Shown: positions 21,718-64,000 of the stretch, one piece after another | Position numbering within the stretch: the first letter of the stretch is position 1 | How the letters are laid out: every line of letters starts with the position of its first letter | From: an uncultured Solirubrobacteraceae bacterium | Lineage (GTDB): Bacteria > Actinomycetota > Thermoleophilia > Solirubrobacterales > Solirubrobacteraceae | Length of the DNA stretch: 64,000 nucleotides | Assembly: GCA_964588985.1 (NCBI GenBank) | Contig: CAZPQW010000001.1 | Span: 96,001 to 160,000, forward strand | Direction of reading: 5' to 3' | Notes under the pieces: generated by a model | Seen by the model: only the letters and a program-made list of their open reading frames with translations | The model's database searches: none | What the model was told of the DNA's origin: nothing | Translations under genes and position numbers: made by a program

Positions 21718-21720
21718 GGG

Positions 21721-30312: not shown

Positions 30313-31815
30313 ATGGACAGCAAAATCGCAGACCCGGGCGTAGCCACGCTTCCGAGTCGTGGGCTGGGCGTCGCACATCGCTTTCGCACGATCGGGACAC
30401 TCGGCTCGAGGGTGCCGATCGCCGAGACCAGGGGGCCCGCGGCGAGCAAACTGCGCGACGCGATCTTCCGCAGGACGCTGCTGGTCGCGGACTCGCTCGC
30501 CATCGTAGGCGCCTTCCTGCTGACGATCACGGTGGCCACGAGGTCGCTGCAGCTCACGTGGGTGGGCATCGCCGCCCTCCCGATCCTCCTGGTGTGCGCG
30601 AAGGTCTCCGGGCTGTACGACCGGGACGAGGCGCTGCTGCGCAAGACGACACTCGACGAGGCGCCCAAGCTGTTCCACGTCGCCACGTTGTGCGCTCTGG
30701 TCGCGTGGCTCGCGGGGGGGCTGGTCGTCACCGGCTCGCTCGACCGTCGCGAGGCCTTGTTCCTGTGGCTCGCCCTCGTCGTTCTGCTGATCCTCATGCG
30801 CACCGCCGCGCGTGCGCTCGCCCTGCGCGTCGCGCCGGCCGAGCGCTGCCTGTTCATCGGGGACGCGGACGCCGCCAGGACGATCCGCTCCAAGCTCGCA
30901 GACCACGGGGGTATCAACGCCAACCTGGTCGCTCATCTCGACCTGGACAAGATCGAGCCGTGGTCGACGGACACTCGTTCGGCCGCCAAGCTCGCGGAGG
31001 TGCGTGAGCTCGCGTGCGACCTCGACATTCACCGTGCGATCGTCGCGCCGAGCAGCGCGGACGCGGGCGAGGTGCTCAACCTGGTGCGGACCCTGAAGGC
31101 GGTGGGCGTACGAGTCAGCGTGCTGCCGAGGCTGCTCGAGGTGGTGGGTTCCTCGGTCGAGTTCGACAACCTTCACGGAGTCACCGTGATGGGCGTCAGG
31201 CGCTTCGAACTGACCCGCTCCTCGGCGGCGGTCAAGCGAGCGTTCGATTTGGCGTGCGCGACGGTCGGGCTGCTTGCGGTCGCGCCCCTGATGCTCGTGG
31301 CCGCGATCGTCATCAAGCTCGACAGCCGCGGTCCGGTCTTCTTCCGCCAGCTGCGCGTGGGACGCCACGGAGAGCACTTCCACATCCTCAAGTTCCGCAC
31401 GATGGTGCCGGAGGCCGAGTCGCTGAAGGCCTCGCTGCGCGATCGCAACGAAGCGCAGGAGGGGCTCTTCAAGATCGCCGACGATCCGCGGGTGACCCGT
31501 GTGGGCAGCTTCCTGCGCAAGTCGGCGCTGGACGAGATGCCACAGCTCCTGAACATCCTCAAAGGCGACATGAGCCTCGTCGGGCCCCGGCCGCTGATCG
31601 TCGAGGAGGACATGCGCGTCGAGGGATGGCACCGTCGGCGCCTCGAGTTGACGCCGGGCATGACCGGGCACTGGCAGATCCTTGGGCCGGCACGGGTGCC
31701 CCTGGCCGAGATGGTGGCCATCGACTACCTGTACGTGGCCAACTGGTCGCTGTGGACGGATTTCAAGATCCTGCTGCGCACCGTCCCCTACGTGATGGGG
31801 CGCCGTGGGCTGTGA
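30313..31815 (+). CDS. Priming polyprenyl-phosphate glycosylphosphotransferase (WcaJ/CpsE type)
   Basis: N-terminal TMs; KRAFD, KFRTM, DPRVT.VG.FLRK..LDEMPQL.N.LKGDMSLVGPRP, PGMTG.WQ. Confidence 0.93.
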   Translation: MDSKIADPGVATLPSRGLGVAHRFRTIGTLGSRVPIAETRGPAASKLRDAIFRRTLLVADSLAIVGAFLLTITVATRSLQLTWVGIAALPILLVCAKVSGLYDRDEALLRKTTLDEAPKLFHVATLCALVAWLAGGLVVTGSLDRREALFLWLALVVLLILMRTAARALALRVAPAERCLFIGDADAARTIRSKLADHGGINANLVAHLDLDKIEPWSTDTRSAAKLAEVRELACDLDIHRAIVAPSSADAGEVLNLVRTLKAVGVRVSVLPRLLEVVGSSVEFDNLHGVTVMGVRRFELTRSSAAVKRAFDLACATVGLLAVAPLMLVAAIVIKLDSRGPVFFRQLRVGRHGEHFHILKFRTMVPEAESLKASLRDRNEAQEGLFKIADDPRVTRVGSFLRKSALDEMPQLLNILKGDMSLVGPRPLIVEEDMRVEGWHRRRLELTPGMTGHWQILGPARVPLAEMVAIDYLYVANWSLWTDFKILLRTVPYVMGRRGL

Positions 31816-31819
31816 GGCG

Positions 31820-32422: not shown

Positions 32423-32478
32423 CCCGCGGCGACGCCTGTAGAGGGCGGGCGCTCAGGACGCCACGCCGCCCCGGTCGC

Positions 32479-32742
32479 TCACGATCCGGCCGCCTGCTCG
32501 AGCTTGGTGGCGATCAGCCCGGAGATCCGCTCGATGGAGCCGAAGTTGCTCGGCACGACGTCGGCGTCGCCGATCGCGATGCCGTACTCCGACTCCAGCC
32601 ACGCCACCATCCGCAGCAGCAGCATCGAGTCGATCACATGCTGCTCGATCAGGGGCAGCTCGTCGGTGAGCTCCGCGCGAGGCCCGTCCCAGTTGGCCTC
32701 TTCGATCAGGAAGTCTCGGATCCGCTCCGCTTGTTGGGTCAT
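32479..32742 (-). CDS. Stand-alone acyl/peptidyl carrier protein
   Basis: IDSM phosphopantetheine motif, E..YGI.I, NFGSI; 87 aa. Confidence 0.9.
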   Translation of the reverse strand: MTQQAERIRDFLIEEANWDGPRAELTDELPLIEQHVIDSMLLLRMVAWLESEYGIAIGDADVVPSNFGSIERISGLIATKLEQAAGS

Positions 32743-32766
32743 GCCTGGTTGCCCCTTTGGTTGAAG

Positions 32767-34323
32767 CTACTGCTGCAAGGCCCGCCGGTCGATCTTTCCG
32801 GTCGACGATTTCGGCAGCTCCGGTCGGAGCTCGATCTCGTCGGGGATCATATGGCTCGGCAGCCGCTCGCGGCACAGGCGGGCGATCCGTGCCTCGGTGA
32901 TCGGTGTGCCGGTCACGACGAACGCCTTCAGGCGATTTGTGATCGTCTCGTCCGGCACGGCTATCACGGCCGCCTCGACCACGCCCTCGATCGCGCTCAG
33001 CGCCGCTTCGATCTCGCCGAGCTCCACGCGGTATCCGCGCGTCTTGATCTGCGAGTCGCGACGGCCGGCGAACAGCAGCTCGCCGTCGGAGCGCCGGCGC
33101 ACGAGATCGCCGGTGCGGTAGTGGCGAATGCCGTCCTCCGAGTGCAGCGCGCGAGCCGTCCGCTCTGCATCGTTCCAGTAGCCGTGCATCACCGTCGGGC
33201 CTCCGATCACGAGCTCGCCCAGCTCACCGTCGGGCGCGGGGGTCCCATCCTCGAGCTCGATCGCCGCGCTCACGCCGGGCAGCGGCACGCCGATCGGCAG
33301 CTCGGCCGTGGGCGGGTGCTCGCGCGGCACCTCGTGCCACGTGCATACGTTGGTCTCGGTCGGGCCGTAGAAGTTGAGATACCTGGGCATCGGCACCAGC
33401 TCCATCAGGCGCGCGAGGTACTTGATCGGGAACACCTCGCCGGCGAAGATCACCACGCGCAGCGCCGGCAGCGGCGTCTCCTCGAGCTCCCCGCGGAGCA
33501 CCAGCGCGGTGAGCGCGGAGGGCACCGAGTACCAGACCGTGATCGTCTGCTCGGCGATGAAGCGCGTGAGCATCACCGGGAAGATCGACAGGTCGCGCGG
33601 GACGAGCACCACCGCCGCGCCGCCGTGGGCGGCCGCGAACAGGTCGAAGGTGGAGAGGTCGAAGTGAAACGGCGCGTGGCTCGAGAGTCGATCCTCCGGC
33701 GTCACACCCACCTCGCGCGCGGCCCAGTCGACGAACGCGAGGCAGTTCGCGTGCGAGAGCATCACGCCCTTCGGCTCGCCGGTCGAGCCTGAGGTGTAGA
33801 GGATGTAGGCGAGCGCGTCGGGGTCGCTCGCGACGGGTGGGGCCTCGGGTGCGAAGGCCTCGACCGCGCTCCAGGACAGCCACTCCACGCCTCCCTTCGC
33901 GTCGCGGCCCTCGGCATCGCCCCCGCCAGCGCCGGCGCCAACGATCGTCTCGAGCGGCACGCCCTGGGCGAGCAGCTCTCTGCACACGCCAGCCCTCGCG
34001 TCCGAGCTCACGACGCAGCGCATACCCGCGTCGCGCGCGATGTAGGCGAGGCGGTGCACGGGCGCCTGGTCGTCGAGCGGCACGTACACCGCGCCCGCCT
34101 TCAGCACGCCGTAGATCGCGATCACCGCCTCGATCGACTTCTCGAGCGCCAGCCCAACGCGATCTCCGGGCGCGACGCCACGGGCGGCCAGCGCAGCGGC
34201 GAGGCTGCTGGACCGCGCGTCGAGCTCGGCGTAGGACAGCTCGCGCTCCCCATCGACCACCGCGATCCGCGCGCCCCCGCTCCGCGCCGCTGCGGAGAGA
34301 AGATCGTGAACCACGGCGCTCAC
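32767..34323 (-). CDS. Stand-alone adenylation enzyme, probable L-prolyl-carrier ligase (PltF/RedM/CloN4-like)
   Basis: YTSGSTGEPKG, YGPTETNVC, YRTGD, PKSSTGK; manual code DLFYIAFVCK close to proline stand-alone codes. Confidence 0.82.
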   Translation of the reverse strand: MSAVVHDLLSAAARSGGARIAVVDGERELSYAELDARSSSLAAALAARGVAPGDRVGLALEKSIEAVIAIYGVLKAGAVYVPLDDQAPVHRLAYIARDAGMRCVVSSDARAGVCRELLAQGVPLETIVGAGAGGGDAEGRDAKGGVEWLSWSAVEAFAPEAPPVASDPDALAYILYTSGSTGEPKGVMLSHANCLAFVDWAAREVGVTPEDRLSSHAPFHFDLSTFDLFAAAHGGAAVVLVPRDLSIFPVMLTRFIAEQTITVWYSVPSALTALVLRGELEETPLPALRVVIFAGEVFPIKYLARLMELVPMPRYLNFYGPTETNVCTWHEVPREHPPTAELPIGVPLPGVSAAIELEDGTPAPDGELGELVIGGPTVMHGYWNDAERTARALHSEDGIRHYRTGDLVRRRSDGELLFAGRRDSQIKTRGYRVELGEIEAALSAIEGVVEAAVIAVPDETITNRLKAFVVTGTPITEARIARLCRERLPSHMIPDEIELRPELPKSSTGKIDRRALQQ

Positions 34324-35501
34324 AGCCCGAGGTGGCGCGCGATCACGTTGCGCTGCATCTCCGAGGTTCCCGAGTAGATCCGCGAGCCGAGCGCGTCGCG
34401 CACGTCGCGCTCGAGCCCGGTCTCGGTCATGTAACCCGAGCCGCCGTGTACCTGCAGCGCGTCGAGGCTCGACTGTACGAGCGCCTCGCTCAGGTGCAGC
34501 TTCGTCATCGCCGCGTCCAGGTCGGTTGCGGCGCCGGCGTCGAGCAGGGCCGCGATCCGATACAGCATCAGGTGAGAGGTCTGCAGGCGCAGGCGCATGT
34601 CCGCAAGCGGGTGCGAGACCGCCTGGAAGGAGCCGATCGGCGCGCGGAACTGGACGCGCTCGCGCGCATACGCGACGCAACGCTCGAGCTGGCGGCGCAT
34701 CGTGCCGACCGCGGCCGCGAGGATCAGGCTGCGCTCCCAGCGCATGGAGCTGTTGAAGATCGCCATCCCGCCGCCCGGCTCCCCAAGCAGCGCGTCGGCG
34801 CCCACGTGGCAGTCGGCGAGGAACAGCTCGCCAAGATGCGACGTTCGCAGCCCCATCTTCGAGAACGGCGAGCCGATCTCCAGCCCCGGCGCTCCACGCT
34901 CCACCACGAACGCGCACAGGCCCGCGAACCCGAGACGCACGTCGGTGGTCGCGAACACTATGAACAGATCGCTGTCGGGGGCGTTGGTGACGAACGTCTT
35001 CGAGCCGTTGAGCAGCCAGCCGTCGTCTGTGGGCGCAGCGGTCGTGCGCAGAGCAAACGCGTCCGAGCCCGATTCCGGCTCGGTCATGCCGTGCGCGGCG
35101 AGCAGCGAGCCGTCGCACAGCCCAGGCAGCCAGCGGCGCTTCTGCTCCTCGGTGCCGAAGTGCACGATCGGCATCTCGCACGCCCACATGTGCGCGTTCA
35201 ACGAGAAGATCAGCCCGTTGTCTGGGCAGCCGTAGCCGAGACCTTCGAGCGCCGCCGCGATCGTCGTCGCCGACGCGCCGAGGCCGCCGTACGCGGGGGG
35301 GACCGGCAGGCCCTGCAGGCCGAGCTGGGCGCACTTGAGCCACTCCTCCTTGGAGAACGTCCCCTCGTGGTCGCGGCGGTCGAGATCGTGGCCGAGCTGG
35401 CTCTGGGCGAAGGCGACGATCGACCGTTGCAGGGAGCGCTGCTCCTCGTCCAGAGGGTCGGGGTGAAGCGCGATCGCGCTCTGCGCTGTGGGGTTGCTCA
35501 T
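34320..35501 (-). CDS. Acyl-CoA dehydrogenase-like, probable prolyl-carrier dehydrogenase (PltE/RedW/CloN3/AnaB-like)
   Basis: LGYGCPDNGLIFSLNAHMWAC, TEPESGSD, IYSGTSEMQ; coupled to A enzyme and carrier. Confidence 0.82.
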   Translation of the reverse strand: MSNPTAQSAIALHPDPLDEEQRSLQRSIVAFAQSQLGHDLDRRDHEGTFSKEEWLKCAQLGLQGLPVPPAYGGLGASATTIAAALEGLGYGCPDNGLIFSLNAHMWACEMPIVHFGTEEQKRRWLPGLCDGSLLAAHGMTEPESGSDAFALRTTAAPTDDGWLLNGSKTFVTNAPDSDLFIVFATTDVRLGFAGLCAFVVERGAPGLEIGSPFSKMGLRTSHLGELFLADCHVGADALLGEPGGGMAIFNSSMRWERSLILAAAVGTMRRQLERCVAYARERVQFRAPIGSFQAVSHPLADMRLRLQTSHLMLYRIAALLDAGAATDLDAAMTKLHLSEALVQSSLDALQVHGGSGYMTETGLERDVRDALGSRIYSGTSEMQRNVIARHLGL

Positions 35502-36400
35502 CGTGGGGCGGGGGCGGCGCTCGCCGGACGGGCCGGCATCAGGTAACGGGCGTAGGTCGTAAACGGACGGTAGCCGAGCCCCAGCCACACCGGAGCGCCG
35601 AGCCCCGAGGTCTGACACAGTGACAGTCGCGCGCCGAGCTCGCGGTAGCTGAGCTCGAGCGCCGCCCACAGGCAGCTCTGCGCGAGTCCGCGGCGCTCAC
35701 CCGGAGGGCCGGAGCGCGGAAGTCGCTGCCCCGGCTTCGGCCGGCGGATCGTCGCGGCCTGGCAGCCGAGGGCAACCTCGTGTGTGACGAGCGTCATCGC
35801 GGCTGACAGCGGCATGTCGTCGTAGTAGGCGACGAACGCCGCCACGTTCGGAACGTCGAGACTGTCCGGATCGAAGAACACCTTCGCCGCGACCTCACGC
35901 GGCATCGACGCCATCCCCCAAGCGTCGGCGACGAGGTCGAGGTAGTCCTCGCGCGTGCGCGCGTCCGCGGCGCGCCTGATCTCGACGCCGTCCGGCGGCG
36001 GCACGTACTCGGGCAGCTGCTCGAGCACCAGCTCCGGGAGGCGCTCCAGCTCGTGCAGCCCCTGTTGTGTCGCGGTGCGCTCCAGGTCGCCGTCGCCGTG
36101 CTCGCGCGCCCACAGCGCGTAGCCGCTCTTGCGCGGCCCGAAGAAGCTGTCGGCCAGGCGCAGGACCTCCTGCGGGCTCAGGGCCTCGCTGAGGCGCAGC
36201 GCGCCGTTGCGGTAGGGGTTCGGCTGCCGGTGGGCGCCGGCGAACAGGAGAAGCCCGTCCTCCTCGGCGAGCGCGCCTCCGTAGCGCGCGAGATACCGAA
36301 GGTACTCGGCCAGCGTCAAGTCGGCCAGGACGAGCAGATCTTTGCGCGCGCTCAGCTCGTCCGTGGCTGGCGTGTGCACTGCAGTTGCCCGCGTGTCCAC
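35498..36400 (-). CDS. GNAT-like acyltransferase
   Basis: C-terminal AT...RRGLA...L.TS.LG.PVW..LGY resembles GNAT motifs A/B, with an insertion. Confidence 0.55.
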   Translation of the reverse strand: MDTRATAVHTPATDELSARKDLLVLADLTLAEYLRYLARYGGALAEEDGLLLFAGAHRQPNPYRNGALRLSEALSPQEVLRLADSFFGPRKSGYALWAREHGDGDLERTATQQGLHELERLPELVLEQLPEYVPPPDGVEIRRAADARTREDYLDLVADAWGMASMPREVAAKVFFDPDSLDVPNVAAFVAYYDDMPLSAAMTLVTHEVALGCQAATIRRPKPGQRLPRSGPPGERRGLAQSCLWAALELSYRELGARLSLCQTSGLGAPVWLGLGYRPFTTYARYLMPARPASAAPAPR

Positions 36401-36497
36401 CGTCGCGTGATCGTAGTGGATACGTGGATGCGACGAATGTCCATTGGAGACGATTGTCCATTACGATATGTGTGTGCTAGAGGGAACTAGCTCCGAC

Positions 36498-37397
36498 TTG
36501 TCGGTCGAGGGGGGGCCGCCGAGTGACACTTCACGTTCGCGTGAGGGGGCGGCTGTGCGGCCGCGCGAGCCCCGTCCCGAGATCTGGTTCCACCGCAAGG
36601 TCAACTTCATCTCCGCGGTAAAGGAGCTGTGGCGCTTTCGCGAGCTGACGGTCACGCTTGCCGAGCGCGATCTGCGCGTCCGCTACAAGCAGGCGGTGCT
36701 CGGTGTGGCATGGGCGGTTGTGGCGCCGGTGGTGATGATGATCGCCTTCAGCGTGCTCATCAATCGCGTCACGAAGATCAACACCGGGGGCGCGCCGTAC
36801 CCGCTGTTCTCATATCTGGGGCTGCTGCCGTGGACGTTCTTCTCCAGCTCCCTGTCCACCGGCGGCCTCAGCCTGGTCTCCAACAACGAACTCCTCAACA
36901 AGCTCTACTGCCCGCGCGAGGTCTTCCCGATCGCCGCCATCGCCGACGCCGCCGTCGACGCGGTGATCGCCACGTGCGTGCTGGCGGTCCTTTTCCCGAT
37001 CGAGGGATTTGCCCCAAGGGCCGAGATCTTCTACGTGCCGCTGCTCCTGGTCGTGATGCTGATGTTCACCCTCGGCGTGACGCTTGCCGTGTCCGCAATC
37101 GTCGTATACGCCCGTGACCTGCGCCTGGTGCTGCCGCTCGCGATCCAGGTGGGGTTGTTCGTCACGCCGGTCGTCTACAGCACGGGATCGATCACCAGCT
37201 CAAAACCGCTCCTGCTCTTGTTCTCGGCGATCAACCCGCTGGTGCCGGTGATCGACGGCATGCGCGCCACGATCCTCACCGGCAATGCGCCGGAATGGGC
37301 TTCGCTGGGCGTCGGCGCGGGCAGCGCGCTGATCTTCCTGCTCGGCGGGTTCCTGCTGTTCAAGCGCCTCGAGACGGGGATGGCCGACATTGCGTGA
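36498..37397 (+). CDS. wzm: ABC-2 glycan flippase permease (Wzm/TagG type)
   Basis: RDLRVRYKQAVLGVAW, LLPWTFFS, TPVVY, NPL; start uncertain (36444-36555). Confidence 0.9.
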   Translation: MSVEGGPPSDTSRSREGAAVRPREPRPEIWFHRKVNFISAVKELWRFRELTVTLAERDLRVRYKQAVLGVAWAVVAPVVMMIAFSVLINRVTKINTGGAPYPLFSYLGLLPWTFFSSSLSTGGLSLVSNNELLNKLYCPREVFPIAAIADAAVDAVIATCVLAVLFPIEGFAPRAEIFYVPLLLVVMLMFTLGVTLAVSAIVVYARDLRLVLPLAIQVGLFVTPVVYSTGSITSSKPLLLLFSAINPLVPVIDGMRATILTGNAPEWASLGVGAGSALIFLLGGFLLFKRLETGMADIA

Positions 37398-38583
37398 GGG
37401 AACGATCGTCGCGGAGGAGATCTGGAAGCGCTTTCGCATGGACGAGCGCCCGACCTACCTGCAGGATCGGCTCTCCGGCGTCGGCGATCGCCTGCGCGGG
37501 CGGCAGGCCGACAGCTGGCGCTGGGCGCTGAACGACGTCAACCTGCGTGCCGAGCCCGGCGAATCGTGGGCGCTGGTCGGCGCCAACGGAGCCGGCAAGT
37601 CGACGCTCTTGAAGATCGTCTCGCGTGTCATGTACCAGACGGCCGGCCGTCTCGACATGGCCGGACGGGTCGGCGCGCTGATCGAAGTCAGAGCCGGGCT
37701 CACTCCGCTGCTGACCGGTCGCGAGAACATCTACCTGACCGGCTCGATCATGGGCCTGCGCCGGCGCGAGGTCGCCCAGCGCTTCGACGAGATCGTCGCG
37801 TTCGCCGAACTGGAGCGCGCGGTCGACCGTCAGGTCAAGTACTACTCGTCCGGCATGCAGATGCGGCTCGGCTTCTCGGTGGCCGCCCACCTGCAGCCCG
37901 ACATCCTGCTCGTCGACGAGGTCCTGGCGGTCGGGGACGCGAGCTTCCAGCAGCGCTGCCTGGACCAGATTCGCGCGGTGCTGAACGAAGGCACCACGCT
38001 GCTGTTCGTCTCACACGACCTGGCCGCGGTGGAGGCCACCTGCGCCAACGGGATCTGGCTGCACAACGGCGAGGTGCGCACCAGGGGGCCGATCCGCGAG
38101 GTTCTGTCCGCCTATCGCGGCGCCGTCGAGGGCGACGCCAAGGCCCGCGCCGACATCGAGGGGCTGATCAAAGTCACGAACGTCGAGGCGGTCTCCCCCG
38201 ACGGAGGGCTGGCCAAGACCGGCGGGCAGCTCGACGTCAAGCTCACCATTCACAGCGACGCGAGCCATCGAGCCTGGATCTACCTCGGGGTGACCGAGGG
38301 CGCCGCCACGCCGATCTTCCTCCTGAACCCGGGACGCGAGGTGCTGCTCGAGCCGGGCGAGACCCAGGTGATGTGCACGATCCCGTCGCTGCCGCTGCCG
38401 AGCGGACGCTTCTACGTGTGGGGTGGGATCTACAAAAACTGGACCCAGGGCGACGAGCTGATCGGCTGGCAGCCGCTGACGGAGTTCGACGTCTATGGAC
38501 CCGAGATGGATGCGGCCCCGCGCGCGGTTGTGCGCCTGTCGCCGATCCACGTCGACTCGAGCTGGGAGATCGAGGGGGCCTGA
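37390..38583 (+). CDS. wzt: ABC glycan flippase ATPase with C-terminal Wzt_C domain
   Basis: GANGAGKST, LTGRENI, YSSGMQMRLGF, DEVLAVGD, VSHD, plus beta-rich C-terminal domain. Confidence 0.92.
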   Translation: MREGTIVAEEIWKRFRMDERPTYLQDRLSGVGDRLRGRQADSWRWALNDVNLRAEPGESWALVGANGAGKSTLLKIVSRVMYQTAGRLDMAGRVGALIEVRAGLTPLLTGRENIYLTGSIMGLRRREVAQRFDEIVAFAELERAVDRQVKYYSSGMQMRLGFSVAAHLQPDILLVDEVLAVGDASFQQRCLDQIRAVLNEGTTLLFVSHDLAAVEATCANGIWLHNGEVRTRGPIREVLSAYRGAVEGDAKARADIEGLIKVTNVEAVSPDGGLAKTGGQLDVKLTIHSDASHRAWIYLGVTEGAATPIFLLNPGREVLLEPGETQVMCTIPSLPLPSGRFYVWGGIYKNWTQGDELIGWQPLTEFDVYGPEMDAAPRAVVRLSPIHVDSSWEIEGA

Positions 38584-44254: not shown

Positions 44255-44423
44255 CGCGGTTGCCTCTCTTCGAGCCACGGTGAGAGATCCTTGGCCATCC
44301 GTGCCTCCCCCGCAACCTCGCTCACATGTCCTTTGCGAGCGGAAATCTTAGCATAGGAAATTCACATCGTCGGGAGACTCGTTGCCTCTCACATGGTGGA
44401 AAACACTCACGGTTCCCCATGGT

Positions 44424-52414: not shown

Positions 52415-52430
52415 TCGCGGAGGCTAGAGG

Positions 52431-53336: not shown

Positions 53337-53416
53337 GTGGAAGCTCCAAGACCCGCCCGTGGGTGCACTACCGTGGCCGACGAGCAGCAATTCGGCGATA
53401 CTACCGAGGCTGTCGC

Positions 53417-54514: not shown

Positions 54515-54553
54515 ATGACTTGCGCTGGGCGTAAAATCTCGAACGGATTCGTA

Positions 54554-55537: not shown

Positions 55538-55541
55538 AGCC

Positions 55542-58500
55542 GTGACGGCGCTCGAGCCAACGCTGCTCTCCTCTCCTGCGACATCTTCCGAGCGCGAGCT
55601 CGCGGCGATCTGGACAGAGCTGCTCGGGGTCGCGCCGGCCGGAACGGAGGAGGACTTCTTCGCCGCGGGCGGCGACTCGATCCAGGCCGCGGCGCTCGTC
55701 GCTCGCGTCGGCTCTCGCCTCAATGTCGAGCTTCCGCTGAGCGAGTTCGTCGAGTGCCCCACGATCGCGGCGCTGGCCGGCCGGATCGACGCCGCCCGGG
55801 CGCGGGGAGCCACGCCCATGGTGTGGCCCGCCACGGAGGACGGTGTCCCGGCGCGCTGCTCCTACGCTCAGGAGCGCTTCTGGTTCATCGACCAGGCCAG
55901 CGGCAGCAACGTCGTCTCGAACGTCTCCTGGGCGTTGCGGCTCGACGGCCCGCTCGACGTGCCTGTCCTGGAACGCGCGCTCGCCGAGCTCGCGCTGCGC
56001 CACGACACCCTGCGCACGCGCTTCGAGCTGCGAGACGGCGCGCCGGTGCAGCTCGTCTCGCCCGAGTCGGAGCTGGCGTTGGAGGTGGCCGAGGCCGGCG
56101 ACGAGGCGCAGGCCGCCGCCCTCGCCGTGGCCGCGGCGCAGACGCCGTTCGATCTCAGCCGCGGGCCGCTGCTGCGCGTGCAGCTGCTGACGCTGGGGCG
56201 TGACGCCAACGTGCTGCACTTCATCGCCCACCACATCGTCTGCGACGACTGGTCCAAGGGTGTGATCCAGTCCGATCTCGCCGCCATCTACACGACGCTG
56301 CGCGCGGGCGAGGAGCCCGCGCTCCCTCCGCCGGTCCAATACCCCGAGTACTCGCGCTGGCAGCGCGAGCGGCTGAACGAGGAGGCCCTTCGCTACGAGC
56401 TCGAGCACTGGAGCGCGCGACTGGCGAACCCGACCGCGCTTGAGCTCCCGGGCGACCGGACGCGCCCGCCCGCGCCGAGCATGCGCGGCGCGCGGCTGCG
56501 CACCACCGTCCCGCCCGACGTCGAGGCGGCGCTGCGCGCACTCGGCCGCGAGGCTGGCGCCACGTTCTTCATGACGATGCTCGCGGCGCTGCAGGCCTTC
56601 CTGCACCGCTACACGCGCCAGGAGGATCTCGTCGTCGGGACCGCGGTCGACAACCGCGGGCGCGTCGAGCTCGAGCGGGCGGTGGGCCTGTTCACGAACG
56701 TGCTCGCGCTGCGAGCGGACGTGTCCGGCCGGCCGACCTTCCGCGAGCTGCTGTCCCGGGCGCGGGCGAGCACGCTCGACGCCGTCGCCCACCAGGAGCT
56801 GCCGTTCGACCGGCTCGCGGCCGCCGCGCCCGAGCGCGACGCCAGCAGGCACCCGATCTTCCAGGTCTTCTACGAGTTCATCGTGCCGGCCCCGCTGGAG
56901 CTGCCGATCCCGGACCTCCACAGCGAGCCGTTCGAGGTGCCCAAGCAGACCTCCGAGTTCGACCTCGGCCTGTATCTGGACGAGCAGCGAGGCGGGCTCG
57001 AAGCGGTGTGGGAGTACAGCGGCGACCTGTTCGAGCCGGCCACGATCGAGCGGATGGCAGGCCATTTCATCCGCCTGCTCGAGGGGATCGTCGCCGATCC
57101 CGACCGCCCGATCGACGAGCTCGCGCTGCTCGACGACGCGCAGCGCCGACAGGCGCTGTCCGGGGCCGACGCGACCGGCGCTCCGCTCCCGGAAGCGTGC
57201 ATCCAGGAGCTGTTCGAGGGCCATGCCCGGCGCGCCCCCGACGCCCCAGCGCTGGTCGCCGGCGAGGAGCGCCTCAGCTACGGCGAGCTGAACCGCCGCG
57301 CGAACTCGATCGCTCACCTGCTGCTCGAGCTGGGAGTCGCGCCCGGAGACGCAGTGGGCCTGTGTCTCGAGCGCTCGGTGGACCTCGTCGCAGCGATGCT
57401 CGGGATCCTCAAGGCCGGCGGCGCATACGTGCCGCTGCACCCGGACCATCCGGCGTCCCGCCTGCTCGCGCAGCTCGACACCGCGGGAGCGCGGATGCTG
57501 ATCGCGCAGGCGCCGCTCGAAGGGTTCGCCGGCACGCTGCTCTCGCTCGAGCGCGAGGGCGAGCGCCTCGCCACGCTCCCGGACACCGACCCCGAGCCCG
57601 CGGTCGGACCGGACGACACGGCCTACGTCCTCTACACGTCGGGATCGACGGGCACGCCCAAGGGCGTGGCGGTCACGCACCGCAACCTCGCCAACTACAC
57701 CGCGCACATGGTCGGGACCCTCGGCGAGGACGGGACGACGAGCGGCCTGCACTTCGGCTCGGTCTCGGCGGTCAGCACCGACCTCGGCAACACCGCCATC
57801 TTTCCGGCGCTCGCCGGCGGCGGCTGCCTGCATCTGATCGCCACCGACGTGACGACCGACGGCGCGGCGTTCGCCGCTTACACAGCCGGCCGGCCGCTCG
57901 ACGTGCTGAAGATCACTCCGTCGCACCTCGCGTCGCTGCTCGACGCCGCCGCCGGCGAGGCGATCCTGCCGCGCCGCTGGCTGATCCTGGGCGGCGAGGC
58001 GCTGAGCTGGGAGCTTGCGCAGCGCGTGCTCGCCCCAGGCGGGCCACGCGTCGTCAACCACTACGGGCCGACCGAGGCGACCGTCGGCTGCTGCACCTAC
58101 GAGCTCGACCTCGATCGGCCACGGCCGCCGGCGGCGACCGTGCCGATCGGCCGACCGATCTCGAACGCGACCGCCTACGTCCTGGATTCGCTGATGCAGC
58201 CGGTGCCCGTCGGGGTGGCGGGCGAGCTCTACGTCGGCGGCGCGGGCATCGCCCGCGGCTACGTCAACCAGCCCGCGCAGACCGCGGAGGTGTTCGTCCC
58301 CGATCCGTACTCCGACGAGCCAGAGGCGCGGCTCTACCGGACCGGCGACCTGGCGCGTCGCCTTCCGGACGAGAGCCTCGAGTTCCTCGGCCGGGCCGAT
58401 CAGCAGGTCAAGATCCGCGGCTACCGGGTCGAGCCGGCCGAGGTGCAGGCGGTCCTGATGCGCGAGCCCGGCGTCCGTCAGGCGGCTGTGCTCGCCACCG

Positions 58501-61500
58501 GCGACGGCGACAGCAGGCGGCTCGTGGCGTACGTGGTCGCCGACGAGGGCCAGGTCTCGCCCAGCTCCCTTCAGGAGGCTCTCGCTCAGACGCTGCCCGC
58601 GTACATGGTCCCGTCGCAGATCGCGACGCTCGACACACTGCCGCTGATGCCAAACGGGAAGCTCGACCGCGCGTCGCTGCCGAGCCTCGAGGTTACCGTC
58701 GCCGCCGCCACGCGGACCGAGCCGCTGAGCGAGCTCGAGACGCAGCTTGCCGACATCTGGGCGGAGCTGCTCGAGTGCGAGGTGGGGCCGGAGGACAACT
58801 TCTTCGAGGCCGGCGGGCACTCGCTGCTGGCGATCCGGCTGATCGCGCGGATGCGCACCGAGCTGGGCGTCAAGCTGACCCTCAAGGCGCTGATCGAAGC
58901 GCCCACGATCGGCCAGTTCGCGGCCAGGATCGAAAGTGTCCGGGGAGCGGCGCCGCCGGCCGCCGACGCCTCGGCCTCCCCAGCACCGGCGGCGGCGCCT
59001 AAGCCCGCCCCGACGGTGCCTCGCGTACCGAGAGACGGTCCGCTGCGCTGCTCCTTCGCCCAGGAGCAGTTCTGGCTCGTCGATCAGCTCACCCCGGGAA
59101 GCTCCGCCTACAACTTCTCGTGGCCGATGCGTCTTGAGGGCCGGCTCGACTCCGACGCGCTCGGCAAGGCGGTGGCGGAGCTGGTCCGCCGCCACGAGGC
59201 GCTGCGGACGCGCTTCATCGCGACCGACGGGCAGCCGATGCAGATCGTCGAGAAGACGGGCACGGCCGCGCTCGAGCTCGTCGACCTCGCCGGCGAGCCC
59301 GATCCGCAGGAGAGCGCGCGGCGGCTGATCGAGGAGCAGACCGCGACGCCGTTCGACCTCGCGCGGGGGCCGCTGCTGCGAGTCGTGCTGATGCGGCTCG
59401 GCGAGCAGGACCACACCCTGTTGATCGTCGTGCACCACGTCGTCTTCGACGGGGTCTCAAAGGTCGTGCTGTACCGCGAGCTCGGCGAGTGCTACGACGC
59501 GTTCGCGGCCGGCCGCGAGCCGTCGCCGGCTGAGCTGTCGATCCAGTACGCCGACTACGCCGAGTGGCAGCGCTCGCAGCTCGATCCCGAGCGGCTCGAG
59601 CGCGAGCTGGCGCACTGGCGGGAGCAGCTCGAGGGCGCTCCGACTGCGCTCGAGCTGCCCACCGACAGGCCCCGTCCCGCCGTGTCGAGCCTGCGGGGCG
59701 CTCGCCACCGCCAGCCGCTGAGTAGCGACCTGCGCGGGGCCCTGGACGCACTCGCCCGGGGCGAGGGCGCGACGTTCTTCATGGCCGTGCTGGCCGCGTT
59801 CGAGGTGCTCCTGTACCGCTACACCGGGCAGGAGGACCTGCTCGTGGGCACGCCCGTCGACACGCGCACGGCGCGCGAGCTCGCGCCGGTGATCGGCCCG
59901 TTCATCAACACCGTGGTCGTCCGCGGCGAGCTGTCGGGCTCGGCCGGCTTCCGGGAGCTGCTGCGAGGCGTCCAGCAGCGCACGGTCGACGCGCTCGAAC
60001 ACCAGGAGCTCCCGTTCGAGCGGCTCGTCGCCACGCTCGCGCCGGAGCGCGACCTCAGCCGCCACCCACTGTTCCAGGCGCTGCTGGCGCTCAACCCGGC
60101 GGAGACCGGACTCCGGCTCGAGGGCGTGAACGTCAGCGACCTCGACCCCGCGTGGTCGGGAGCGCGCGTCGACCTGTTCCTGATCCTCGACGATCTGCCG
60201 CAGGGGCTCGAGGCGATCTGGGAGTACAGCAGCGACCTGTTCGAGCCGGCCACGATCGAGCGGATGGCGGGCCACTTCGTCCGCCTGCTCGAGGAGATCG
60301 TCGCCCACCCCGACCGGCCGATCGACGACCTTGCGCTGCTCGGCGAGGCCGAGCGCACCCTGCTGCTGGAGGAGTGGAACCGAACGGAGGCGGAGATCCC
60401 GCCGCAACGTCTCGAGCAGCTCGTGGCTGAGCAGGCGCGGGCGACCCCCGACCGGGTGGCGGTGCGCTTCGACGAGCGCGAGCTGAGCTACGGAGAGCTC
60501 GACGTCCGCGCCAACCGGCTCGCGAACCGGCTGCTGGCGCTGGGGGCTGGTCCGGACGAGCTCGTGGGCGTCTGCCTGAACCGCTCCGAGGAGCTGCTCG
60601 TGGCGCTGCTCGCGACGTTGAAGACGGGCGCGGCGTACGTTCCGATCGACCCCGGGTTCCCGCCGGCGCGCCAGGAGTTCATGCTCGCCGACGCGCAGGT
60701 GCGCGTGCTCGTGACCGAGGAGCCGCTGCTGGCGAGCCTGCCGGCGTCCGACGCGACGGTGCTGTGCGTCGATCGCGACGGCGGCGAGGTCGCGCTCGAG
60801 TCCACGGACCCGCCGGCCCACGACGCCGGCGCCGAGGACCTCGCCTACGTGATCTACACGTCCGGGTCGACCGGCAAGCCGAAGGGCGTCGAGATCCCGC
60901 ATCGCGCGCTCGTCAACTTCCTCTGCTCGATGCGCGAGCAGCCCGGCCTGGTCGCGGAGGACGTGCTGGTGGCCGTCACCACGCTGTCGTTCGACATCGC
61001 CGGCCTTGAGCTGTACCTCCCGCTGATCACCGGGGCGACCGTGGTGATCGCCTCGGCGCAGACCGCCGCCGACCCGCGGGCGCTGGCGCGGCTGCTGGAG
61101 TCCTCCGGTGCGACCGCGATGCAGGCCACGCCGACGACCTGGCGGATGCTGATCGACTCGGGCTGGCCCGGACGGGCGGACCTGAAGGCGCTGTGCGGCG
61201 GGGAGGCGCTCCCGCCCGCGCTTGCCGACGAGCTGGTCGGGCGCGTGCCCGAGCTGTGGAACATGTACGGGCCGACCGAGACAACGATCTGGTCGACGTG
61301 CGCCCACGTGCGGAGCCCGGGCGAACAGCCGACCATCGGCCGCCCGATCGCCAACACGACGCTCCACGTGCTCGACGGGCGCGGCGCTCCCGCTCCGATC
61401 GGCGTGCCCGGAGAGCTCCTGATCGGTGGCGCGGGGCTCGCTCACGGGTACCGCAACCGGCCGGAGCTGACCGCCGAGCGGTTCGTAACCGACGAGCCCG

Positions 61501-64000
61501 GCGGCGAACGTCTTTACCGGACCGGCGATCTCGCCCGCTACCGCCCCGACGGGACGGTGCAGTTCCTCGGTCGCCTCGACCACCAGGTCAAGCTGCGGGG
61601 CTTCCGGATCGAGCTCGGGGAGATCGAGGCCGTGCTCGGCGGCCATCCGGCGGTCGCCGGCGCCGCGGCGATCGTCCACGACGGCCCCCAGGGCGAGCCC
61701 TCGCTGATCGCCTACGTGGTCCCCGACGGCGAGCCCGCCGACCCGGAGGATCTGCGCCGCTTCCTGGGCGAGAGCCTTCCCGCCTACATGGTGCCGGCCA
61801 CGATCGTGACGCTCGAGCGGCTGCCGCTCACCCCGAACGGCAAGATCGACCGCAAGGCGCTGCCCGCGCCCGAGCTGCCGTCGTCCCGCGAGGACCAGTA
61901 CACGGAGCCGCGCGACGCCACCGAGGCGGCCGTCGCGTCGGTGTTCTGCGAGGTGCTCGGCGTGGATCGCGCGGGCGCGCACGACGACTTCTTCGGGCTC
62001 GGCGGGCAGTCGCTGCTCGCCGCGCGGCTCGTCAGCCGGCTGGACGCGAGGTTCGAGATCGAGCTGCCGCTCCGCGCCCTGTTCGAGGCCCCGACGGTCG
62101 CGGGGCTCGCGGCCCACATCGAGGCGCTGACAGCCGCGCCCCAGGCCCCGCAGACGCCCGCGCCCGAGCCGCTCGTGGGGCTGGACGCCAGCCCCGAGCC
62201 TCCGCCGCTGCTCCCAGTCGCTGGCGTTCGACCGGCCTCGTTCGCGCAGGAGCGCTTCTGGTTCATCGACCAGATCGGCGCGGGCGCGGCGTACAACATC
62301 TCCTGGCCGCTGCGCCTGCGGGGAGCACTCGACGTGGTTGCGCTAGAGCGCGCGCTCAACGAGATCGTGCGCCGGCACGAGATCCTCAGGAGCCGGTTCG
62401 CGGTCGAGGACGGCCGGCCCGTGCAGGTGGTCGAGCCTTCACGGCCCGTCAGCCTCGAGTTCGTCGACCTGAGCGGGGAGACCGAGCGCGAGCGCGAGGC
62501 GCAGAGGCTCATCGACGAGCGGACGCAGGCTCCGTTCGATCTGGCGGAGGGGCCGCTGATCCGCGCCTCGCTGCTGCGCCTGGAGCCCGCCGAGCACGTC
62601 CTCCAGGTCGTCGTCCACCACGCAGCAGCCGACGGAGGGTCGAAGGTCGTCTTCTTCAGGGAGCTGGGAGCGCTCTACGGCGCCTATCTCGACAACCGCC
62701 CCGCGGCGCTGCCCGAGCCGCCGATCCAGTACGCCGACTTCGCCCGGTGGCAGCGCTCGACTCAGCAGGGCGAGCGGCTCGAGCGCGAGCTGGCGCACTG
62801 GTCGAGGGAGCTCGACGGCATACCCGCCGGGCTCGAGCTGCCCTCCGATCGCCCGCGGCCCGAGGCGGCCACGCTGCGCGGAGCGTGGCTGCGCACGAAG
62901 CTCGCCGACGACACGCTCGAACGCCTGGGCGGGCTCGCCCGCACAGAGGGCGCGACGCTGTTCATGGTCATGCTCGCCGCGTTCGAGGTGCTGCTGCACC
63001 GCTACAGCGGCCAGGAGGACGTGGTCGTCGGAACCCCGGTCGACACACGCGGGCGGGCCGAGCTGGAGCAGCTGATCGGGCCGTTCGTGAACACGCTCGT
63101 CCTGCGCGGCGACCTGTCCGGCGCGCCCAGCTTCCGCGAGCTGCTGGACCGCGTGAAGCGGCGCACGCTGGACGCGATCGAGCATCAGGAGCTTCCGTTC
63201 GAGCGACTGGTGGAGGCGCTCGCGCCGGAGCGGGAGCTGGGCCGTCACCCCCTGTTCCAGGCGCTGATCGCGCTGAACCCGCCCGAGCCGGCGATCGAGC
63301 TGCAGGGGCTCGAGGTGGAGGAGCTCGACACCGAGAAGACCGCTTCGCGCGTCGACCTCACGCTGCTGCTCCAGCAGCGCGAGCAGGGACTCGACCTGAT
63401 CTGGGAGTACAGCAGCGACCTGTTCGAGCCCGACACGGTGCGGCAGATGGCCGACCGCTTCCTGTGTCTGCTCGACTCGATCGTCTCCAGTCCCGAGCTG
63501 CCGATCGACGAGCTCTCGCTGCTGCGCGAGGACGAGCGGCAGCCGGCGGGGATCGAGGAGGGCGAGCGGACGTTCCCCGTGTTCTGCCTGCACGAGCGCT
63601 TCGAGGAGCAGGCGCGACGGACGCCCGACGCGGTCGCGGTTCGCCACGAGGACGAGTCGCTCTCCTATCGCGAGCTCAACGAGCTGGCCAACCGTCTAGC
63701 GCACCGCCTGCGCGCACTGGGGGTGAAGCCGGACGCTCTGGTCGCGCTGTGCCTCGAACGCTCGCTGGATCTCGTGGTAGCGGTGCTCGCGGTGCTGAAG
63801 GCCGGCGGCGCCTACGTCCCGCTCGACCCCGAGTACCCCGCCGAGCGGCTCGCGTTCGTGCTGAGCGACTGCGACGCGGCCGTGCTGGTCACGCAGGAGC
63901 CCCTGCTCGACCGCTTCGTCGAGTCCGCGCCGGCGACGGTCGTGTGCGTCGACCGCGACCGGACGCTGATCGAGCGAGAGAGCGCCGAGGACCCGTCCCC
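55542..64000 (+). CDS. Multimodular NRPS T-C-A-T-C-A-T-C-A... (open at window end)
   Basis: Manual translation from GTG 55542, same frame at every checkpoint: GGDS T0; HHIVCDD; A1 code DLTKIGHVGK (Asp); GGHS; HHVVFDG; A2 code DILQLGMIWK (Gly); GGQS; HHAAADG; A3 begins near 63590. Confidence 0.93.
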   Translation, partial: MTALEPTLLSSPATSSERELAAIWTELLGVAPAGTEEDFFAAGGDSIQAAALVARVGSRLNVELPLSEFVECPTIAALAGRIDAARARGATPMVWPATEDGVPARCSYAQERFWFIDQASGSNVVSNVSWALRLDGPLDVPVLERALAELALRHDTLRTRFELRDGAPVQLVSPESELALEVAEAGDEAQAAALAVAAAQTPFDLSRGPLLRVQLLTLGRDANVLHFIAHHIVCDDWSKGVIQSDLAAIYTTLRAGEEPALPPPVQYPEYSRWQRERLNEEALRYELEHWSARLANPTALELPGDRTRPPAPSMRGARLRTTVPPDVEAALRALGREAGATFFMTMLAALQAFLHRYTRQEDLVVGTAVDNRGRVELERAVGLFTNVLALRADVSGRPTFRELLSRARASTLDAVAHQELPFDRLAAAAPERDASRHPIFQVFYEFIVPAPLELPIPDLHSEPFEVPKQTSEFDLGLYLDEQRGGLEAVWEYSGDLFEPATIERMAGHFIRLLEGIVADPDRPIDELALLDDAQRRQALSGADATGAPLPEACIQELFEGHARRAPDAPALVAGEERLSYGELNRRANSIAHLLLELGVAPGDAVGLCLERSVDLVAAMLGILKAGGAYVPLHPDHPASRLLAQLDTAGARMLIAQAPLEGFAGTLLSLEREGERLATLPDTDPEPAVGPDDTAYVLYTSGSTGTPKGVAVTHRNLANYTAHMVGTLGEDGTTSGLHFGSVSAVSTDLGNTAIFPALAGGGCLHLIATDVTTDGAAFAAYTAGRPLDVLKITPSHLASLLDAAAGEAILPRRWLILGGEALSWELAQRVLAPGGPRVVNHYGPTEATVGCCTYELDLDRPRPPAATVPIGRPISNATAYVLDSLMQPVPVGVAGELYVGGAGIARGYVNQPAQTAEVFVPDPYSDEPEARLYRTGDLARRLPDESLEFLGRADQQVKIRGYRVEPAEVQAVLMREPGVRQAAVLATGDGDSRRLVAYVVADEGQVSPSSLQEALAQTLPAYMVPSQIATLDTLPLMPNGKLDRASLPSLEVTVAAATRTEPLSELETQLADIWAELLECEVGPEDNFFEAGGHSLLAIRLIARMRTELGVKLTLKALIEAPTIGQFAARIESVRGAAPPAADASASPAPAAAPKPAPTVPRVPRDGPLRCSFAQEQFWLVDQLTPGSSAYNFSWPMRLEGRLDSDALGKAVAELVRRHEALRTRFIATDGQPMQIVEKTGTAALELVDLAGEPDPQESARRLIEEQTATPFDLARGPLLRVVLMRLGEQDHTLLIVVHHVVFDGVSKVVLYRELGECYDAFAAGREPSPAELSIQYADYAEWQRSQLDPERLERELAHWREQLEGAPTALELPTDRPRPAVSSLRGARHRQPLSSDLRGALDALARGEGATFFMAVLAAFEVLLYRYTGQEDLLVGTPVDTRTARELAPVIGPFINTVVVRGELSGSAGFRELLRGVQQRTVDALEHQELPFERLVATLAPERDLSRHPLFQALLALNPAETGLRLEGVNVSDLDPAWSGARVDLFLILDDLPQGLEAIWEYSSDLFEPATIERMAGHFVRLLEEIVAHPDRPIDDLALLGEAERTLLLEEWNRTEAEIPPQRLEQLVAEQARATPDRVAVRFDERELSYGELDVRANRLANRLLALGAGPDELVGVCLNRSEELLVALLATLKTGAAYVPIDPGFPPARQEFMLADAQVRVLVTEEPLLASLPASDATVLCVDRDGGEVALESTDPPAHDAGAEDLAYVIYTSGSTGKPKGVEIPHRALVNFLCSMREQPGLVAEDVLVAVTTLSFDIAGLELYLPLITGATVVIASAQTAADPRALARLLESSGATAMQATPTTWRMLIDSGWPGRADLKALCGGEALPPALADELVGRVPELWNMYGPTETTIWSTCAHVRSPGEQPTIGRPIANTTLHVLDGRGAPAPIGVPGELLIGGAGLAHGYRNRPELTAERFVTDEPGGERLYRTGDLARYRPDGTVQFLGRLDHQVKLRGFRIELGEIEAVLGGHPAVAGAAAIVHDGPQGEPSLIAYVVPDGEPADPEDLRRFLGESLPAYMVPATIVTLERLPLTPNGKIDRKALPAPELPSSREDQYTEPRDATEAAVASVFCEVLGVDRAGAHDDFFGLGGQSLLAARLVSRLDARFEIELPLRALFEAPTVAGLAAHIEALTAAPQAPQTPAPEPLVGLDASPEPPPLLPVAGVRPASFAQERFWFIDQIGAGAAYNISWPLRLRGALDVVALERALNEIVRRHEILRSRFAVEDGRPVQVVEPSRPVSLEFVDLSGETEREREAQRLIDERTQAPFDLAEGPLIRASLLRLEPAEHVLQVVVHHAAADGGSKVVFFRELGALYGAYLDNRPAALPEPPIQYADFARWQRSTQQGERLERELAHWSRELDGIPAGLELPSDRPRPEAATLRGAWLRTKLADDTLERLGGLARTEGATLFMVMLAAFEVLLHRYSGQEDVVVGTPVDTRGRAELEQLIGPFVNTLVLRGDLSGAPSFRELLDRVKRRTLDAIEHQELPFERLVEALAPERELGRHPLFQALIALNPPEPAIELQGLEVEELDTEKTASRVDLTLLLQQREQGLDLIWEYSSDLFEPDTVRQMADRFLCLLDSIVSSPELPIDELSLLREDERQPAGIEEGERTFPVFCLHERFEEQARRTPDAVAVRHEDESLSYRELNELANRLAHRLRALGVKPDALVALCLERSLDLVVAVLAVLKAGGAYVPLDPEYPAERLAFVLSDCDAAVLVTQEPLLDRFVESAPATVVCVDRDRTLIERESAEDPS

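Follow-up and report, generated by a model that had tools for sequence, protein, structure and literature searches.

ATP-binding cassette (ABC) exporters made of a separate ATPase and an ABC-2-type permease are known both from envelope polymer export and from secondary metabolism. The Wzm/Wzt pair of Aquifex aeolicus (7K2T and 8DKU; Escherichia coli O9a type) is encoded as a two-gene operon of permease and ATPase, and the TagGH/TarGH pair exports wall teichoic acid. Clusters encoding nonribosomal peptide synthetases (NRPS) usually use major facilitator superfamily, DrrAB-type, or fused ABC exporters, and ATPases of the DrrA type have no additional C-terminal domain. In the ilamycin cluster (PMC7230496), the ABC-2-type pair IlaJ/K, which is of the DrrAB type, is given as the exporter of the NRPS product. 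Here, we describe a Wzm/Wzt pair that lies inside an NRPS cluster in a 64,000-nucleotide stretch of DNA (the window; positions 96,001 to 160,000 of contig CAZPQW010000001.1 in assembly GCA_964588985.1, or G000:C1:96001-160000) from an uncultured Solirubrobacteraceae bacterium with a genome of 3.41 Mb in 48 contigs and about 70% G+C. The pair was recruited from the polysaccharide export clade and has kept a divergent β-sandwich of the cap-binding type.

Genes were called with a script based on third-position G+C content, with start codons left unrefined, and were named by Pfam and NCBIfam profile searches; the order of condensation (C), adenylation (A), carrier (T), and thioesterase (TE) domains in the synthetases came from blastp with the cluster's own domains. 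An original prediction, made from the sequence alone, had read the region as one hybrid system in which NRPS genes are interleaved with lipid-linked glycan initiation and export, and both profile searches confirmed that the genes it listed are present where it had placed them. The homologues found carry the source names Solirubrobacteraceae or Solirubrobacterales bacterium. The stretch that begins at 32482 and extends roughly 13 kb beyond the end of the window (about C1:173 kb) is most likely a single nonribosomal peptide cluster, and its genes inside the window are given below, with GNAT standing for Gcn5-related N-acetyltransferase, SAM for S-adenosylmethionine, PAPS for 3'-phosphoadenosine-5'-phosphosulfate, and pLDDT for the predicted local distance difference test score.

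32482-32742, minus strand: carrier protein (PP-binding, 2.4e-4; serine motif DSM)
32770-34299, minus strand: stand-alone adenylation enzyme (AMP-binding; TIGR01733 above cut-off)
34323-35669, minus strand: prolyl-carrier-protein dehydrogenase-like flavoenzyme (best families RedW and PigA)
35501-36400, minus strand: tandem-GNAT acyltransferase, 300 amino acids (AlphaFold model with pLDDT 85, Foldseek)
36444-37394, plus strand: Wzm-like ABC-2 permease (PF01061, 1.7e-16)
37390-38580, plus strand: Wzt/TagH-clade ABC ATPase (NCBIfam TagH and Wzt/RfbE)
38613-40016, minus strand: KamA-family 2,3-aminomutase-like radical SAM enzyme (TIGR03820, 1.6e-50; TIGR00238, 6.7e-49)
40019-44278, minus strand: NRPS, C-A-T-TE (Pfam, blastp domain order)
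44427 to about 47680 (open reading frame to 48143), minus strand: NRPS, C-A-T (Pfam, blastp domain order)
47666-50869, minus strand: NRPS, C-A-T (Pfam, blastp domain order)
50951-52414, minus strand: stand-alone C domain (Pfam, blastp domain order)
52434-53390, minus strand: PAPS-type sulfotransferase 1, Sulfotransfer_1 (PF00685, 2e-22; PF13469, 6.9e-18)
53363-54511, plus strand: beta-propeller protein (weak Lactonase and YVTN repeat matches)
54515-55534, plus strand: PAPS-type sulfotransferase 2, Sulfotransfer_1 (PF00685, 7.3e-24)
55542-64000 and beyond, plus strand: NRPS, T-(C-A-T)x3-C, 3746 amino acids in the genome, leaving the window at residue 2819

By sequence and fold, the transporter belongs to the polysaccharide/teichoic acid export clade. 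The permease, which has at least five hydrophobic segments and whose gene shares its final 8 bases with the start of the Wzt gene, has a single NCBIfam match, to the galactan export family Wzm/RfbD (7.9e-17, far below the cut-off). The ATPase matched TagH best (1.1e-54; 186 bits versus a cut-off of 538), followed by Wzt/RfbE (4.4e-47) and DrrA (3e-28), all below the equivalog cut-offs. As a separate ATPase and ABC-2 permease encoded within a secondary metabolite cluster, the pair resembles DrrAB and IlaJ/K; the ATPase, however, is much closer to TagH and Wzt than to DrrA. An AlphaFold model of the ATPase (29 sequences; pLDDT 79) combines a nucleotide-binding domain and a long helix with an all-β C-terminal domain; the last 150 residues form a β-sandwich (about residues 255 to 397) that aligns in the model with the carbohydrate-binding domain of Aquifex Wzt. 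Identity to Aquifex Wzt is 30 to 31%, with 342 to 384 positions aligned, the C-terminal β-sandwich included. Full-length Aquifex WzmWzt chains were the best Foldseek matches (8dku_A; E value of 1.1e-32, 384 columns, 30% identity), and VIA-align matched 342 residues over model positions 5 to 375 to 7k2t_A with a Z score of 28.2 and a root mean square deviation of 12.6, a value that fits a different angle between the two Wzt domains in the model. TagH, M. abscessus Wzt, and TarH were the other top structural matches. The nucleotide-binding domain superposes on that of TagGH/TarGH (7dd0) with a Z score of 26, but there are no teichoic acid genes near the window pair and the C-terminal domain is of another kind.

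The C-terminal domain had originally been assigned to Wzt_C. The Pfam profile of that name (PF14524) was not found in the window Wzt, even at an E value of ≤1, and was absent from the best 120 of its 261 homologues, and the hhalign match to canonical Wzt_C tails was weak (60% probability, E value of 8.5e-5, 115 columns). The β-sandwich aligns with the binding domain of Aquifex Wzt, and we interpret the tail as a diverged relative of the Wzt cap-binding domain. In addition to the undetected Wzt_C profile, the window pair differs from the Aquifex pair in lying in an NRPS cluster without a glycosyltransferase; such enzymes, whose coencoding is a feature of Wzm/Wzt exporters, are found with the window pair's more distant relatives at loci L059, L068, and L062.

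The association of the pair with NRPS genes was examined in 24 other genomes, a draw from the genus rather than the whole of it. Full-length orthologues of the window Wzt (81 to 85% identity) occur in two of them (G018 and G019), in both cases inside the cluster, and the other Wzt matches in the genus have at most 46% identity and end at about residue 250, covering the nucleotide-binding domain only. Both genomes keep the order dehydrogenase, unnamed GNAT protein, Wzm, Wzt, (KamA), and NRPS. In G019 (C4:27179-29709; L025:7179-9709), Wzt and KamA are each read in two pieces, Wzt having an in-frame TGA at about residue 300; the bin is 61% complete, and the split genes could reflect decay of the cluster or an assembly error.

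A scan of public genomes, with one genome per species, gave 57 loci fetched with the window Wzt, each viewed within flanks of 10 kb. Wzt relatives that include the C-terminal domain (48 to 88% identity) are encoded by 42 of these loci, and NRPS genes lie within 10 kb in 28 of the 42 (L035 to L058, L072, L074, L075, and L083). The presence of NRPS genes was established for most loci by tblastn with the window proteins at ≥35% identity and was confirmed by Pfam in L045, L054, L074, and L083; in L043, Pfam recovered a phosphopantetheinyl transferase (PPTase) and TauD only. Thirteen of the full-length loci have no NRPS genes nearby, 3 of these being on contigs of ≤13 kb, and L071 is ambiguous. The place of Wzm/Wzt between the cassette of the first three genes in the list above and the synthetases is fixed, for example, in L035, L037 to L039, L042, L044, L046, L047, L053, L055, and L056. 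In Jatrophihabitans (L074) and a member of the Propionibacteriales (L083), the pair sits amid C, A-T, C-A-T-TE, TauD, and PPTase genes, and no glycan gene was found within 10 kb on either side of it. A sortase gene (L083:8238-8978) lies directly upstream of Wzm/Wzt at the edge of the NRPS cluster in L083.

In a quick maximum-likelihood tree of Wzt (44 rows, comprising 39 full-length sequences and 5 outgroups with the nucleotide-binding domain only; rows shorter than 380 residues [L053, L056, L057, and L075] and the remaining rows with that domain only were left out), 20 NRPS-context rows and the less certain L043 formed a 21-row clade with a Shimodaira-Hasegawa-like approximate likelihood ratio test (SH-aLRT) value of 97. 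A separate 4-row clade (SH-aLRT, 100) held three NRPS-context rows and L073, a 1.9-kb contig, and the L059, L068, and Kitasatospora rows branched between or outside the two NRPS clades. Because the pair is gained and lost with the cluster within the genus and recurs with NRPS genes in 28 of 42 relatives, Wzm and Wzt are, as had been predicted, genuine, conserved members of the NRPS cluster and not chance neighbors. No other transporter was found by Pfam or NCBIfam between 32.4 kb and the end of the cluster. The tandem GNAT, the pyrrole cassette, and the sulfotransferases also travel with the synthetases, whereas the priming sugar transferase to their left does not.

In the window, the assembly lines comprise five complete modules and one truncated module besides the stand-alone A enzyme, in agreement with the earlier count of at least six modules; Pfam and blastp gave a modular arrangement of the C, A, T, and TE domains. 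Two consecutive synthetases have open reading frames that overlap by 480 bases (47663 to 48143); since the downstream C domain begins at residue 180 of the open reading frame, the true start of the synthetase at 44427-48143 is probably at about 47680, by the upstream stop. Past the window end follow two unnamed genes, an x-A-T-TE synthetase (C1:167793-171866), a TauD-type oxygenase, and a large LVIVD-repeat protein, and both assembly lines terminate in ordinary thioesterases.

The genes at 32482 to 35669 comprise a stand-alone A enzyme, a free carrier, and a dehydrogenase, adjacent and on one strand, from which we infer a pyrrole-2-carboxyl starter cassette with proline as the substrate of the A enzyme. 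Known cassettes of this kind include RedM/RedO/RedW, PigI/PigG/PigA, and PltF/PltL/PltE. The acyl-CoA-dehydrogenase-type flavoenzyme of the window set has RedW (1.3e-130; 436 bits, cut-off of 650) and PigA (5e-127; 424 bits, cut-off of 500) as its best families. Unlike in the prodiginine or pyoluteorin pathways, the cassette feeds an NRPS, and its scores are below the equivalog cut-offs. The aminomutase-like protein, which has a CPLYCGHC (CxxxCxxC) motif at residue 159 and scores below both family cut-offs, presumably supplies a β-amino acid.

Two PAPS-type sulfotransferases within the cluster recall the sulfated nonribosomal peptides (aeruginosins, cyanopeptolins, and sulfazecin), although the host, a member of the Thermoleophilia, and the transporter type are different; the glycopeptide sulfotransferases StaL and Teg are likewise encoded in NRPS clusters. 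In all five further cluster genomes, an orthologue of sulfotransferase 1 (49 to 53% identity) is located toward the synthetases, at a distance of 26 to 36 kb from Wzt, and sulfation is therefore a conserved trait of the cluster family. We also considered sulfate as a general cap read by the Wzt tail and rejected it. The genome of the glycan-context locus L068 has no Sulfotransfer_1 gene and the nearest one to L059 is about 65 kb away, and in L072, L074, and L083, for which the matching of contigs to records was assumed, these genes are on other contigs or beyond housekeeping genes; given these positions, the reading of sulfate does not characterize this Wzt subfamily as a whole.

The 300-amino-acid protein at 35501-36400 has no Pfam or NCBIfam match. 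Its model has a tandem-GNAT fold, for which the best Foldseek match was 4ius (E value of 3.9e-13). Further matches were VipF, MshD, FemX, PamZ (the paenilamicin self-resistance enzyme), Sbb17 (an aminoacyl-tRNA-dependent peptide synthase), and a tandem GNAT from the biosynthesis of clavulanic acid, together with MprF-like folds. It has 302 homologues, which are called "hypothetical" wherever they are named and of which the 120 listed contain no Pfam domain, and it accompanies Wzm/Wzt in the genus genomes and the public loci. The modeled fold suggests that it is probably an N-acyltransferase for tailoring or self-protection. A role as a membrane or lipid-linking enzyme was discarded, as the protein has no hydrophobic segment and a soluble tandem-GNAT fold.

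These genes suggest a route to the product. Proline would be loaded onto the free carrier protein and oxidized to the pyrrole-2-carboxyl starter, and the KamA-type aminomutase would provide a β-amino acid. Seven modules on five synthetases may then make one or two peptides, released by the two thioesterases and decorated by the TauD-type hydroxylase and the two PAPS-type sulfotransferases (hydroxylation and O-sulfation), with the tandem GNAT possibly acylating an amine as a tailoring or self-protection step. The resulting amphiphilic sulfated peptide would be exported by Wzm/Wzt without a dedicated lipid-linked sugar.

The original prediction had instead tied the peptide to a lipid-linked sugar through a priming transferase said to lie among the NRPS genes. 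That gene is actually at the left edge of the cluster, between an aspartokinase gene and a sigma factor gene, in the following arrangement.

25067-27046: dnaX, left of the priming transferase
27393-28016: recR, left of the priming transferase
28032-29285: aspartokinase (ask), left of the priming transferase
30313-31815, plus strand: polyprenyl-phosphate hexose-1-phosphate transferase, large WbaP/EPS type (PF02397, 9.6e-66)
31805-32422, plus strand: extracytoplasmic function (ECF)-type sigma factor (Sigma70_r2/r4, TIGR02937)

The priming transferase has a Bac_transf catalytic domain, five hydrophobic segments, and a TIGR03025 score of 351.7 bits (NCBIfam cut-off, 295.55). Matches of ≥60% identity over most of the protein are present in 20 of the 24 genus genomes, most of which have no NRPS cluster, while cluster-type Wzt is present in 2 of the 24, and the two do not form one hybrid NRPS-glycan system; weaker matches only were found in G015, G017, G020, and G024. 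In G005, G008, and G023, which have no cluster-type Wzt, the gene lies within 500 bases of aspartokinase and the dnaX-recR-ask-priming transferase synteny is kept. The transferase is followed in G023 and G008 by a Wzy_C protein of 690 to 704 amino acids and an ECF sigma factor, with a Wzx-type flippase and a GT4 glycosyltransferase further along in G023 and CpsB in G008, and in G005 a UDP-GlcNAc 2-epimerase gene lies beyond it. The aspartokinase gene is directly upstream in all six public loci where the transferase abuts the cluster (L035, L037, L038, L042, L055, and L056). On the Wzt tree, which does not include L056, the other five group within a single subclade of 10 rows; the adjacency thus reflects one inherited chromosomal site and not repeated recruitment. 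At cluster loci in other sites (L039, L044, L047, and L053), no priming transferase was found in the flanking DNA that precedes the pyrrole cassette; at six more loci, this upstream flank is too short for a judgment. The priming transferase is part of the chromosomal backbone at the recR-ask-priming transferase polysaccharide site and is not specific to the NRPS cluster. A second copy (77% identity) is encoded at C7:97163-98572, among at least five Bac_transf-type genes in the genome, and G001 and G018 likewise have two copies. The ECF sigma factor, for which both the polysaccharide locus and the NRPS cluster are possible targets of regulation, is beside the cluster at 69 to 82% identity in the same six public loci and also in G019.

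To the right, the NRPS island is bounded by a Wzy/Wzc-type polysaccharide cluster at C1:178-204 kb (L010 and L092), 18 to 44 kb beyond the window end, so that it is located between the priming transferase and this second set of glycan genes. The earlier statement that the window has no elongating glycosyltransferase or Wzy is correct; about 18 kb beyond its right end, two Wzy_C-type proteins (one of them a weak match), two GT4 and one GT2 glycosyltransferases, a WecG/TagA transferase, and a Wzz plus P-loop (Wzc-like kinase) protein are encoded. Also encoded there are an NTP_transf_5 protein, an FkbM methyltransferase, an MptE-like protein, a GFO/IDH/MocA oxidoreductase, an HpcH aldolase, a SIS protein, a cytidylyltransferase, and an inositol-monophosphatase-family protein; the aldolase, SIS, cytidylyltransferase, and phosphatase set looks like a route to a CMP-activated ulosonic acid. 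Being of the Wzy/Wzc type, this cluster needs no ABC exporter. A canonical Wzm/Wzt pair is present on contig C31 (C31:21506-23613; L029:9506-11613), with an ATPase that does match PF14524 (7.7e-16), and is flanked by GT2/GT4 fusion enzymes of 1193 and 675 amino acids, two epimerase/dehydratases, and a DUF2142/PMT_2 membrane protein. Its Wzt, about 40% identical to the window Wzt, represents the pair conserved across the genus. Just right of the Wzy/Wzc-type cluster (C1:205600-213600; L092:11645-19527), asparagine-synthase-like, HPr-kinase-like, ABC ATPase, and Sulfotransfer_3 genes stand together, a set that we take to resemble a lasso-peptide-type cluster with a sulfotransferase.

We lean toward the interpretation that the window holds a cluster for a sulfated, pyrrole-capped nonribosomal peptide and that the recruited glycan-type ABC pair exports the peptide itself, as a product pump. 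This preference rests on the pure NRPS contexts of the pair, on the finding that no lipid carrier enzyme is conserved with the pump, and on the pump being the sole transporter of the cluster. Several observations weigh against it. To our knowledge, all characterized members of the TagH/Wzt clade move polyprenyl-diphosphate-linked polymers, in keeping with the PDB titles of the matches found here, and a member that exports a free peptide is not known to us. IlaJ/K, the nearest published precedent, belongs with DrrAB, a type to which the window ATPase shows less similarity (DrrA, 3e-28, versus TagH, 1.1e-54). Relatives with 62 to 64% identity (L059 and L068) and 51% identity (Kitasatospora, L062) occupy classic glycan clusters with GT4, GT2, and methyltransferase genes, joined in L059 and L068 by DegT and FemAB-like GNATs. 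Fifteen invariant residues of the C-terminal domain are common to the window Wzt and these glycan-context relatives, and the tail may for this reason read something that is common to glycan and NRPS contexts. Polysaccharide genes recur next to the cluster within the Solirubrobacterales (L043, L048, L051, and L054). The chemistry of the product is deduced from family names alone, the dehydrogenase, aminomutase, and Wzm matches are below curated cut-offs, and all of the genomes compared are metagenome bins. In another polysaccharide-related neighborhood of the cluster, an asparagine-synthase-type amidotransferase and two to three polysaccharide-lyase-domain proteins are encoded upstream of the pyrrole cassette (L044:523-5116 and L047:303-5044).

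The same glycan affinities could mean that the peptide is put onto, or caps, a polyprenyl-diphosphate-linked sugar or short glycan, which Wzm/Wzt would flip to give a cell surface conjugate; the carrier would come from this or another priming transferase, and the Wzt tail would read the peptide or a sulfate cap. Such a conjugate would suit a transporter of the lipid-linked glycan export clade that keeps a cap-binding-type domain with 15 invariant residues shared across glycan and NRPS contexts, and the FemAB-like GNATs or Asp/Glu racemase in the glycan export clusters of the nearest non-NRPS relatives hint at sugars decorated with amino acids. Several arrangements place the cluster in or beside polysaccharide loci, the Bac_transf-type genes elsewhere in the genome could supply a carrier, and FemX- and MprF-like folds are among the matches of the tandem GNAT. 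The nearest analogue would then be the mycobacterial glycopeptidolipids, in which an NRPS peptide is an envelope component, but these have their own glycosyltransferases and MmpL/Gap export, neither of which was found in the window cluster. The idea has lost its main anchor, since the adjoining transferase is a backbone gene, an independent polysaccharide pathway exists, and the NRPS contexts in L074 and L083 are free of glycan genes. The original prediction had itself named two findings that would count against it, and both were obtained as far as the priming transferase is concerned: it is present in relatives without the NRPS cluster (G005, G008, and G023), and there is an independent pathway downstream. 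Searches with Pfam and NCBIfam from 31.8 kb to where the NRPS cluster ends detected no enzyme that uses polyprenyl carriers, whether a glycosyltransferase, a priming transferase, or another kind, and around the Wzm/Wzt pairs of L074 and L083 none lies within 10 kb either. Each assembly line closes with a thioesterase of the ordinary type, and no enzyme joining peptide to sugar was identified. We consider a conjugate of this kind unlikely.

Still less probable, in our judgment, is that Wzm/Wzt serve a polysaccharide unrelated to the peptide and share only residence in a variable polysaccharide/secondary metabolite island. Polysaccharide genes do flank the cluster in the window's genome as well as in L043, L048, L051, and L054, and relatives in glycan contexts exist, but the pair is gained and lost together with the NRPS genes in the genus, it has a fixed position, with the pyrrole cassette on one side and the synthetases on the other, in the public loci that have the cassette, and its surroundings are purely NRPS in two other orders. 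Moreover, the flanking polysaccharide cluster can do without an ABC exporter, and the genome has its canonical Wzm/Wzt elsewhere. It may also be that the pair acts mainly in self-protection by clearing a membrane- or lipid-carrier-targeting peptide from the membrane of the producer. Immunity is a frequent role of ABC-2-type pairs encoded in antibiotic clusters (DrrAB and BcrAB), and the resemblance of the tandem GNAT to PamZ points the same way; the cluster, however, has no other exporter for secretion, and the transporter clade is not the one usually tied to immunity, which leads us to regard this as equally improbable.

Returning to export of the peptide by the recruited pump, the individual parts of the cluster are all of known kinds; we found no description of a pump from the TagH/Wzt clade that is a conserved member of NRPS clusters, our literature search for a Wzm/Wzt pair inside an NRPS cluster having stopped short of full texts. 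The arrangement, with a pump of the O-antigen/teichoic acid kind, is conserved over about 28 species-level genomes, mostly of uncultured soil Actinomycetota. It suggests either an unrecognized route of peptide export or a peptide tied to lipid carrier chemistry, and either would widen the cargo of the transporter family. Very tentatively, and with more doubt than confidence, we suggest that a branch of lipid-linked glycan exporters was taken over by NRPS clusters in at least two actinobacterial lineages, where it exports a sulfated nonglycan peptide or displays a peptide on a polyprenyl-linked carrier. In the former case, a free sulfated peptide would be a substrate class not known for Wzm/Wzt transporters; in the latter, the Thermoleophilia would have a type of envelope peptidolipid not described before. 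The cluster also flags a product class from this lineage, which is without characterized metabolites. For genome interpretation more generally, a priming transferase that adjoins a cluster may belong to the conserved chromosomal backbone, and variable genome sites are common to polysaccharide loci and secondary metabolite islands.

Two further gene groups in the window lie apart from the NRPS cluster. At 10727-14784, on the minus strand, a full-length LigD with phosphoesterase, ligase, and primase-polymerase domains and Ku are encoded, separated by a GH114 glycoside hydrolase gene. At 20195-21864, also on the minus strand, an AbiEii-like nucleotidyltransferase toxin fragment of 145 amino acids, matching the C-terminal half of its profile only, is encoded together with an AbiEi-like antitoxin regulator, and the two are possibly a degraded type IV toxin-antitoxin pair.

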